14,162 nt of DNA, from the IMG/VR virus record IMGVR_UViG_2713896908_000004. The stretch is one strand, 5' to 3'. Positions 1 to 1,558 of this stretch are shown one piece after another. Each line of letters begins with the position of its first letter. The first letter of the stretch is position 1. The stretch is from a virus (Duplodnaviria; Heunggongvirae; Uroviricota; Caudoviricetes). A program made the position numbers.

Positions 1-1558
1 GCCCCACCACCAATAGCAGCTGCAACAGCCTTGCGTAATGATGGCGACATTATTCACCTCTCGCAGCCTTACGCTTGTCTTCTTTTATCTTGAAATAAAG
101 GTTTGTCAGGTACGTCAGCAGGCCAAACACCAGACTACCCAGCACGCCTATTGCCACCCATTGGGATGGGGAGACTTTGTCCAGCAGTTGCAGTAACCAG
201 TATCCCGTCCCCACCGCTGACGTGGTGTATGACACACCTGTTGTGATTTTTTCCATCTGGTACATACCCCGTCTCCCGTTATCCGGAAGTTGACAACAAT
301 AAAAAGCCACCAGTTAATTACTGATGCCCCAGGTATCCTATTATCGGACCGGTGTTGACGATTTCGCATAATCGTCAACACCAACCAAATATAAGCATAT
401 CCAATTGAAATATTTTCCGGTTAAAACTTAGGAAGAGTCTCTGTTCCCGTACATACTGACTTTTTCAGAGCACAGCCCCCCCCTTCATCGCATCAACAAT
501 TGAGTAGAGGCTTATTTATTACACTGATTTTATTATCAAAGTTGTTATCAGGTTATCTGTATAAAAATCCATGTATAACGATTATATCTACAATAAAATA
601 GATATTATTCGCAATGGCGTATACATAAATCAGTATAAGGTTGATAACAATATATCCTAATCAATAGGAATATATGCTTGACAATTACTATTACTATCAA
701 ATAAAAAAGAAATTAATATATAGCTTCTCCACTGAGGGCCTTCCTCCGCCAGCGCAGATTTATTTTCCCATTACCCTCTGTACTGGCGTTTTTTTATTAC
801 GATACTGTAGAGCGATTCGTGCCTCCCCCACCACGATCACACCGTCAATTGCCAAGGGATAATACTTTATTTACTAATCTTCATTCTTCTCCCATAAGCA
901 CGGATAACGACACAAAACAGAGCAGAAAAGGTACAGAATAATCATCTCTTTGCAATCTGAATAAAAAAAAGCTGCGCGATGCGCAGCCTGCAATAACAGG
1001 AATGAAGATAATATGGAATAACATTAGGATATATGTATGGTGTCTCTCGCGGTGAGTTCGATCGATGTCACAGCTCCACATACCTACACCGATGTCCCAC
1101 GAGCAAGAAAGCTCACCATACGACACTCTTTTTAATAAACATCCAATGAAAAAATCAAGCATTACTTATACCGATTTTTATCTCAGACCACAATAATGTC
1201 ACAATCCAGCGCACAAGAAGTGGTAATACTCTGGCAATCACTTATCGGATCTTTCGTTCTTCCTGGTCAACCTTACCATCCGTACAGATAACCAAATAAG
1301 GCACGTTAATTACCATCTGAGTCAGTTCCCGCTTTTAAAGAGTTGCATCCTTACAAACTTTTTACCCAAGATACCGGACATTGCGACGCACCTTTGTTTG
1401 GATGTACCAGCTCCCAAAAGCAATCTACCCACACAGAAAATCACACCTATCACTCCACAAACTCCCCACACAGGAGATTTTGTTGATATGCATCGGGCGA
1501 ACATATATAAAAAAAGCTCGCCGAAGCGAACCTGATTATGAATCTGGAGCGGGCAGCG

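Follow-up and report, generated by a model that had tools for sequence, protein, structure and literature searches.

Predicted PasD/STnc100-like and Esr41-like small RNA genes between the tRNA cluster and the holin gene of a lambdoid prophage

Convergent pairs of small RNA (sRNA) genes have been reported 3' of pR' at the cargo ("moron") site of lambdoid prophages (Tree 2014, PMC4104026). In the pairs from enterohaemorrhagic Escherichia coli (EHEC), such as AsxR (EcOnc02) with EcOnc27 3' of stx2B, and with the related anti-sRNA AgvB, one gene is sense and the other antisense, and both are located between Q/pR' and the lysis cassette (Tree et al. 2014). The gene for the sRNA PasD, a relative of STnc100, is located upstream of an esterase or a holin gene, shows linkage to Q and LpxR, and has matches to Esr41 in its vicinity (bioRxiv 10.64898/2026.05.13.724894). 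Here, we compare these systems to positions 270-1540 of a viral sequence of 14,162 nt (IMG/VR record IMGVR_UViG_2713896908_000004), the complete stretch being referred to as the window. The window represents a lambda-like (lambdoid) prophage with its late genes on the minus strand, and the interval is located between a tRNA cluster and the holin gene.

We consider it probable that this interval is the cargo slot of the lambdoid late operon 3' of Q and pR', which has lost its protein cargo but has kept the sRNA genes that are typical for the slot. Its layout is ordinary and has already been described, except for one AT-rich insert of 340 bp. Convergent sRNA pairs have been described for this site before (Tree 2014; Pearl Mizrahi 2021; Zhu 2026), and the architecture is known. 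An earlier sequence-only reading had described the interval as poor in open reading frames (ORFs) and had proposed a decayed cargo locus, a regulatory leader for the lysis genes, or an sRNA gene. The interval is not featureless, and this interpretation is partly supported. All of the features that had been listed (two terminators, an inverted repeat, a C tract) are present at or near the positions given, and the flanks (tRNAs, holin, Q) are as described. Decayed cargo accounts for positions 1165-1381, for which relatives carry intact tciA and tciB genes. As to a leader for the lysis genes, conservation of a holin leader is limited to positions 266-330. The sRNA gene, for which no location had been given, has two candidates, at 959-1122 (minus strand) and 709-797 (plus strand). 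Comparison to related prophages thus revealed the tciA/tciB remnants, homologs of both sRNAs, and conserved leaders; for positions 331-671, it returned near-identical copies only. The features are compiled in Table 1.

Table 1. Features of the interval and of its surroundings. Coordinates refer to the window unless a locus is named.
Feature	Position	Strand	Basis or remark
P21-type holin	53-265 (ATG at 265)	-	Pfam
Conserved holin leader	266-330	-	95% identical in 565 E. coli genomes (BLAST match 270-330)
Orphan AT-rich segment (~340 bp, GC 0.34)	331-671		takes the place of ~45 nt which E2348/69 PP4 has from the holin leader to the Esr41-like promoter
Perfect inverted repeat GGTGTTGACGAT / ATCGTCAACACC	351-362 / 371-382		distance to the downstream holin ATG, 86 nt
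C8 homopolymer	476-483	+	sole C or G run of at least 7 in the 14 kb window
Candidate Esr41-like sRNA gene	678-797	+	covariance model, promoter alignment, fold; antisense orientation relative to the late operon
Spacer between the two convergent candidate sRNA genes	798-958		within the 61% identity match of 718-1218 to the E2348/69 PP4 locus (L008 3692-3163)
Candidate PasD/STnc100-family sRNA gene, diverged copy	959-1122	-	covariance model, BLAST, synteny
Predicted sigma-70 promoter of the PasD-like sRNA	1129-1158	-	-35 TTGATT at 1158-1153, 18 nt spacer, -10 TAAAAA at 1134-1129
tciB (DUF3927 small membrane protein) remnant, 3' end only	1165-1218	-	blastn
tciA (TerB-family) pseudogene remnant	1228-1381	-	tblastn, nucleotide alignments
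Conserved leader, tRNA terminator to tciA start codon	1382-1506	-	~73% identity in 577 E. coli records and phage JLK-2012
Intrinsic terminator closing the tRNA cluster	1507-1533 (stem 1533-1514, U7 at 1513-1507)	-	terminator scan and fold
tRNA-Met, tRNA-Arg, tRNA-Thr	1545-1776	-	ARAGORN
Antiterminator Q	2844-3614	-	Pfam
LpxR moron	4003-4959		Pfam
RefSeq 132 aa hypothetical protein	L008 3301-3699 (E2348/69 PP4); L011 7077-7475 (EDL933)		antisense over PasD1, sense over the Esr41-like element

Two convergent candidate sRNA genes

Two regions of the interval are assigned to sRNA families as candidate genes. The first is a putative diverged member of the PasD/STnc100 family. A covariance model (R2) was built from PasD1, PasD2, and two copies of STnc100, with the window left out. 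It matches positions 959-1122 on the minus strand over its full length (model positions 1-197 of 197) with 50.3 bits (E ~ 4e-12), the next match having 7.6 bits. Using blastn, positions 933-1218 match the PasD2 locus (E = 4e-22) and positions 718-1218 match the PasD1 locus in prophage PP4 from strain E2348/69 of enteropathogenic E. coli (EPEC) (E = 3e-28). Positions 933-1218 are collinear with the region which follows the DUF3927 gene in relatives, and the alignment shows the same terminator and a conserved hairpin with a compensatory change; the basal stem of this hairpin is kept via compensatory C-G to U-A changes.

The predicted RNA (~1121-963, ~160 nt) consists of a long 5' hairpin (1120-1032), a single-stranded stretch, and an intrinsic terminator (stem 989-969) with a poly-U tail (U8 at 970-963). 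The sequences of PasD1 and PasD2, their seed, and their coordinates from RIL-seq (a method in which interacting RNAs are ligated and sequenced) were taken from the literature (PMC8550237). The putative promoter of the window copy, TTGATT-N18-TAAAAA, aligns with TTGACT-N18-TAAAAA from PasD2. Since the RIL-seq 5' coordinate of PasD2 (NC_011601:741157) is 7 nt after its -10 element, the equivalent start in the window is predicted at ~1121. The location corresponds to that of the characterized relatives as well: the candidate follows the DUF3927 gene tciB, precedes the position of esterase and holin, is encoded on the strand of the late genes, and is close to Q and LpxR. PasD1 and PasD2 from EPEC E2348/69 as well as STnc100 thus share with the window copy the site, the strand, the promoter layout, the linkage to Q and LpxR, the basal stem of the long 5' hairpin, and a near-identical terminator (GGCUGCGCAUNGCGCAGC followed by a U run). 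The window copy differs from them by its low sequence identity (~64%), by a hairpin which is 12 nt shorter, by a changed seed (see below), and by an Rfam score far below the gathering score. For STnc100 (RF02076), this score is 12.9 bits (E = 2.4-5.6), the gathering score being 47. At the syntenic site of relatives, the same model scores 148, 107, 41, and 38 bits. Because PasD1 and PasD2 themselves only reach 37.7 and 41.4 bits, respectively, the Rfam model is centered on STnc100.

The second region is an Esr41-like sRNA gene, predicted to be convergent to the PasD-like gene. A covariance model (R1) was built from E2348/69 PP4, the Stx2a prophage of an O8:H28 strain, and genuine Esr41 from the SpLE1 island, again with the window left out. 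With 40 bits (E ~ 4e-7) and all model positions covered (1-92 of 92), its best match in the window is to positions 709-797, plus strand. The next matches, with ~20 bits, are terminators, and PasA is not matched by this model. The Rfam model for Esr41 (RF02676) covers positions 710-797 (plus strand) at full model length with 18.6 bits (gathering score 102), and CyaR matches the gene at full length with 21.7 bits (gathering score 47). The predicted promoter has a -35 element TTGACA (678-683) and a weak -10 element (~701-707). The predicted RNA (~709-797) would start with a single-stranded region (UUCUCCAC), followed by a small hairpin (734-747) and a terminator (stem 749-788, U7 at 789-795). The terminator, GCCAGCGCAGA...UCUGUACUGGC followed by U7 (749-795, plus strand), has a folding free energy (dG) of -15 kcal/mol, and the z-score for the fold of the gene is -3.4.

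When the window sequence is aligned with those from PP4, O8:H28, and genuine Esr41, all four share the -35 element TTGACA, the single-stranded UUCUCCA, the small hairpin, and the terminator. In the window as well as in Esr41 and its prophage relatives (PP4, O157:H7, O8:H28 Stx2a), the hairpin is of GGG/CCC type, and the terminator is of the form GCCAGC...GCUGGC with U7. The same Esr41-like element is found downstream of PasD1 in E2348/69 PP4, antisense between PasD and holin as in the window, and it is 100% conserved in many O157:H7 genomes; it is also present close to stx2B in an O8:H28 Stx2a prophage. Genuine Esr41, in contrast, is encoded in the SpLE1 island and not in a lambdoid late region. 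The window copy further differs from it at its 5' end, where a hairpin is missing (see below), and by having the longer terminator loop of the prophage subgroup.

With one gene sense and one antisense between Q/pR' and the lysis cassette, the pair predicted in the window resembles the published EHEC pairs, the difference being that its antisense partner is Esr41-like rather than an anti-sRNA of the AgvB/AsxR type. In E. coli 2014C-3655 (L002), AgvB (3169-3230, plus strand, 96.5 bits) and STnc100 (3231-3420, minus strand, 148 bits) are convergent and directly abut each other, while the PasD-like and Esr41-like genes, at the same site in the window, are ~165 nt apart. The antisense partner thus appears to be exchangeable. 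In E. coli O8:H28 strain BMH-17-0027 (L009, NZ_CP076704 2650517-2653750), a variant of the prophage Esr41-like element with 82% sequence identity is encoded antisense ~340 nt downstream of stx2B. It adjoins a frameshifted DNA methyltransferase gene and tRNA-Thr/Gly, in what looks like a rearranged late region.

Decayed cargo genes and coding potential

In phage JLK-2012 and in E. coli 2014C-3655, the tRNAs are followed by a terminator, a leader, tciA (TerB family), tciB (DUF3927), the nanS-p esterase gene, and the holin gene. The window shares with the tciA/tciB moron of JLK-2012 and of EHEC prophages the leader, the start-codon context, and the position directly after the tRNA cluster, but carries only fragments of the two genes. 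Judged from the alignments, positions 1165-1381 are a decayed cargo gene pair. Codons 1-11 of tciA (1381-1349; MSGILGKK in the window compared to MFGIFGKK in relatives) are followed by a frameshift, by residues 21-47 at 1334-1254 (tblastn, E = 5e-6), by an internal deletion of ~240 bp, which was detected with sensitive blastn, and by the 3' end at 1268-1228; tblastn also returned a C-terminal piece. An intact TciA frame of ~143 aa with two TerB half-repeats is not found in the window, where the pieces are in different frames and have no Pfam match. From tciB, the last ~55 nt (~18 codons) remain: positions 1113-1217 match 3386-3493 of the 2014C-3655 locus (E = 9e-12), and positions 933-1218 match loci L004 and L007 across the 3' end of the DUF3927 gene. 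Unlike many of its relatives, the window has no nanS-p esterase gene in the stretch from here to the holin gene. An intact coding gene in related prophages, which had been named as a sign that the interval is simply a pseudogenized remnant, does exist for positions 1165-1381.

The terminator of the tRNA cluster is kept in JLK-2012 and in E. coli 2014C-3655, substitutions in its stem remaining paired via G-U wobble according to the alignment. The leader stays conserved at the level given in Table 1 although the tciA gene of the window is dead, and it contains a hairpin with a dG of -15 kcal/mol followed by UUUUCUGU (near 1440-1493, minus strand).

At the tRNA cluster itself, the "tRNA-Thr" of the window (1545-1620, minus strand) is a chimera, in which the body of a tRNA-Thr is fused to the 3' end of a tRNA-Gly. 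Two near-identical copies of the locus, an IMG/VR contig (L003) and a metagenome contig (L005), have four tRNAs (Met, Arg, Thr, Gly), and a stretch of 78 bp, flanked by two GGAATCGAAC repeats in the T arms, is missing from the window. By hand pairing, 4 of the 7 acceptor pairs and 2 of the 5 T-stem pairs are left in the chimera, and its Rfam score is 39 bits compared to 53-72 bits for the neighboring tRNAs. It is probably non-functional or an assembly collapse.

The coding potential of the interval is low, as the sequence-only reading had concluded. The longest ORFs have 93 aa (881-1162, minus strand), 77 aa (1381-1614, plus strand, extending into a tRNA), and 62 aa (674-862, plus strand); they cross terminators or a tRNA, and none of them has a Pfam match. 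Megablast and blastn comparison of the interval to E. coli complete genomes (5426), phages (50,697), and plasmids (72,556) resulted in matches at its two ends only. One is to the holin leader; the other (1359-1540, ~73% identity, 577 records) is annotated as the start of a TerB-family gene. Exact-seed scans of IMG/VR, GTDB genomes, and metagenomes retrieved the two near-identical copies L003 and L005 only, besides one chance match (see below). The interval has no tandem repeats, and the direct repeats that were listed look like chance.

One could argue that an unannotated small protein is encoded by the 93 aa ORF, by the 62 aa ORF, or by a counterpart of the 132 aa ORF from E2348/69 and EDL933. 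Such ORFs exist, and RefSeq has annotated a 132 aa hypothetical protein antisense to PasD1 in PP4. We consider this extremely unlikely, as a six-frame search of positions 326-1000 against 5.8 billion proteins had no match at E <= 0.1, and Pfam matches are absent from ORFs that span intrinsic terminators. In the window, the 132 aa frame is 30% identical and has an internal stop, its similarity being centered on the two sRNA terminators, which argues that the region is non-coding. According to these comparisons, the 132 aa protein is probably a spurious entry in both E2348/69 and EDL933, annotated where two sRNA genes are located.

The orphan segment and the holin leader

Between the Esr41-like promoter and the holin leader is the one part of the interval which falls outside the assignment to a cargo slot with sRNA genes. 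This orphan segment has no match in the E. coli genomes, phages, and plasmids mentioned above and no protein match in six frames. A scan of GTDB genomes with the pattern of its inverted repeat resulted in a single chance match to an unrelated metagenome-assembled genome. Beyond the window, it is only found in the near-identical copies L003 and L005.

Several candidates for its origin were rejected. The tblastn search for nanS-p remnants was negative. PasA, which is located antisense between esterase and holin and was found in L002, L004, and L007 only, and likewise PasC were discarded, as positions 331-717 have no BLAST match to the PasA region of L007. Positions 529-608 weakly match (64%) the AT-rich sequence upstream of lpxR, which we ascribe to base composition.

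The 12 bp perfect inverted repeat, which the sequence-only reading had placed ~90 bp upstream of the holin, is confirmed and extends to a perfect stem of 13 bp (351-363 / 370-382) with a loop of 6 nt. The fold has a dG of -22 kcal/mol on the plus and -26 kcal/mol on the minus strand (z-score about -6), and a 13 bp stem was reached in one of 1000 dinucleotide shuffles. As there is no U tail on either strand, the repeat is not a canonical terminator. Closer to the holin, its conserved leader has a weak hairpin (7 bp stem, 326-308) followed by UUUUUAUU, ~40 nt ahead of the start codon. This hairpin with its U run (300-330, minus strand) may terminate transcription weakly, or the leader may be processed there.

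The two hairpins raise the question of whether they jointly form a cis-acting leader that tunes holin expression by processing, stabilizing, or attenuating the late transcript, in which case the orphan segment would be a module for lysis timing. Two observations would be in line with such a role: the hairpin located 86 nt upstream of the holin gene is very stable and not expected by chance, and a conserved hairpin with U run is present 40 nt upstream of the holin start. We nevertheless regard it as unlikely, because the inverted repeat lacks a U tail and none of the related prophages which share this holin leader has it, so that it is not needed there for lysis control.

The C8 tract is also present as reported, and a run of at least 8 occurred in 17 of 1000 shuffles. 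Its length is C8 in the window, C7 in L003, and C8 in L005, and this is the sole difference over 1568 aligned bases among the three copies, which would fit slippage as well as a sequencing error in the homopolymer. The tract might be a phase-variable switch which acts by slipped-strand mispairing on a neighboring promoter or peptide. That the only length difference among the copies affects the only C or G run of at least 7 in the window speaks for this idea. On the other hand, a single length difference among three assemblies may be a sequencing error, and the tract is outside of all ORFs of meaningful length and of predicted promoter spacers. A link to an ORF was rejected, since C7 and C8 only alter peptides of ~7-19 aa which lack ribosome-binding sites. 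In our view, a switch is very unlikely.

More generally, the orphan segment could be an undescribed functional module which displaced the ~45 nt spacer, either a new regulatory RNA or a slipped-strand switch which sets how the stretch from the Esr41-like gene to the holin gene is transcribed or processed. To this we assign a quite low probability.

Late transcription and the standing of the sRNA genes

In the order of late transcription, Q is followed by an ORF for a membrane protein, the tRNAs, the interval from position 1540 down to 270, and the holin gene. Prophages in many E. coli genomes share 95-97% sequence identity with the parts of the window that flank the interval. The membrane protein (249 aa, 1920-2669, minus strand) shares 60% sequence identity with WP_001302581.1 from E2348/69 and O157 prophages. 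It has no match in the local copy of Pfam, while its homologs are tagged as PF27470 (TfpB) in precomputed tables; exact protein look-up returned no record for it. The corresponding look-up for the Q protein led to contexts of the EDL933 type, which are devoid of the present interval.

That polymerase modified by Q reads through all downstream terminators is standard lambdoid biology. An intrinsic terminator resembling tR' is present directly after Q (2795-2774, minus strand), with a 9 bp stem followed by a U run, ~45-65 nt past the Q stop codon. It suggests a short pR' transcript comparable to the 6S RNA of lambda.

The two minus-strand terminators which had been placed at 1509..1531 and 963..987 are real, with their stems at 1533-1514 (U7) and 989-969 (U8). 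They are the strongest terminator-like sites in positions 1-4000, where the scan detected 7 sites compared to 2.8 +/- 1.8 in shuffles. In the interval, the properties of intrinsic terminators are seen on the minus strand at 1533-1507 and at 989-963 and on the plus strand at 749-795, but not at 351-382. The conclusion that two terminators between Q and the lysis genes make lysis dependent on antitermination is compatible with the sequence but adds little, because late expression is already Q-dependent due to the terminator directly after Q. Furthermore, the terminator at 963-989 is the 3' end of the predicted sRNA gene and thus not a free-standing barrier.

From the observed homology, synteny, promoter and terminator motifs, and folds, we infer how the interval may be expressed, including Hfq dependence, targets, and read-through. 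Along the direction of late transcription, the polymerase would encounter the tRNA terminator, the leader, the broken tciA/tciB pair, the PasD/STnc100-type gene, the convergent Esr41-type gene, the orphan DNA, and the holin leader. In the lysogen, each sRNA would have a sigma-70 promoter of its own and would stop at its own terminator, and the two may act via Hfq on mRNAs of the host or the prophage, by analogy with PasD and Esr41. Upon induction, Q-modified polymerase starting at pR' would pass tR', the tRNA terminator, and the PasD terminator and continue into the genes for holin, endolysin, and spanin. The terminators on the sense strand (tRNA, PasD-like, and the weak 326-300 hairpin with U run) would be ignored by this polymerase; most plausibly, they are the sites where the tRNA and sRNA transcripts of the lysogen end. 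The Esr41-like gene would, in addition, be transcribed in antisense by late read-through.

Several observations weigh against this assignment. Both sRNA copies are far from their characterized relatives (~61-64% identity) and score below the Rfam gathering scores (12.9 vs. 47 and 18.6 vs. 102). In the PasD-like copy, the seed UGUGAG, which is complementary to the target motif CUCACA, has become UGUUAU (CCUGUUAUUGCAGG in the window compared to CCUUGUGAGUUCUGG in PasD), and 12 nt are gone from the long hairpin. The Esr41-like copy is devoid of the 5' stem-loop (GAUGCUCUAGGCAUC), having a gap of 9 nt relative to the two prophage relatives and of 7 nt relative to Esr41, so that the first helix of the model is unpaired; in addition, its -10 element is without the usual final T. 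With tciA and tciB broken and the adjacent tRNA being a deletion chimera, the surroundings are decaying, and the sRNA genes could be dead too. As the other copies of this version are near-identical only, selection on the sequence is not measurable from them. Finally, the orphan segment with its hairpin and C tract is not explained by a cargo slot with sRNA genes.

Taken to its end, this would mean that the whole interval is dead DNA, i.e. decayed cargo in a degrading prophage, with PasD-like and Esr41-like pseudogenes that only keep their hairpins. The gene remnants, the chimeric tRNA, the lost seed, the hairpin deletion, the missing 5' hairpin next to a weak -10 element, and the low Rfam scores would all be expected in this case. 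However, promoter hexamers, terminators with U7 to U8, and a basal stem with compensatory changes have been kept at a sequence identity of only 61-64%, as one would expect if RNA features are under constraint. Also, the seed of an sRNA is known to differ from one prophage copy to another (PMC4104026, among other sources). We thus consider dead DNA a possible but doubtful explanation, and continue to prefer a cargo slot with retained sRNA genes. Whether or not the two copies are functional is a separate matter, for which we consider the chances to be roughly even.

An apparently empty, ORF-poor stretch has thus become an annotated locus, to which two pseudogenes, three terminators, and two candidate genes for regulatory RNAs are assigned. 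The current understanding of late regulation in lambdoid phages is unchanged by these results. Diverged prophage copies of PasD/STnc100 and Esr41 escape detection at the standard thresholds of Rfam, but are recovered by synteny and small custom models. The PasD-like copy, with promoter, scaffold, and terminator kept and a different seed, fits the published view of prophage sRNAs as conserved frames on which the targeting region is diversified.

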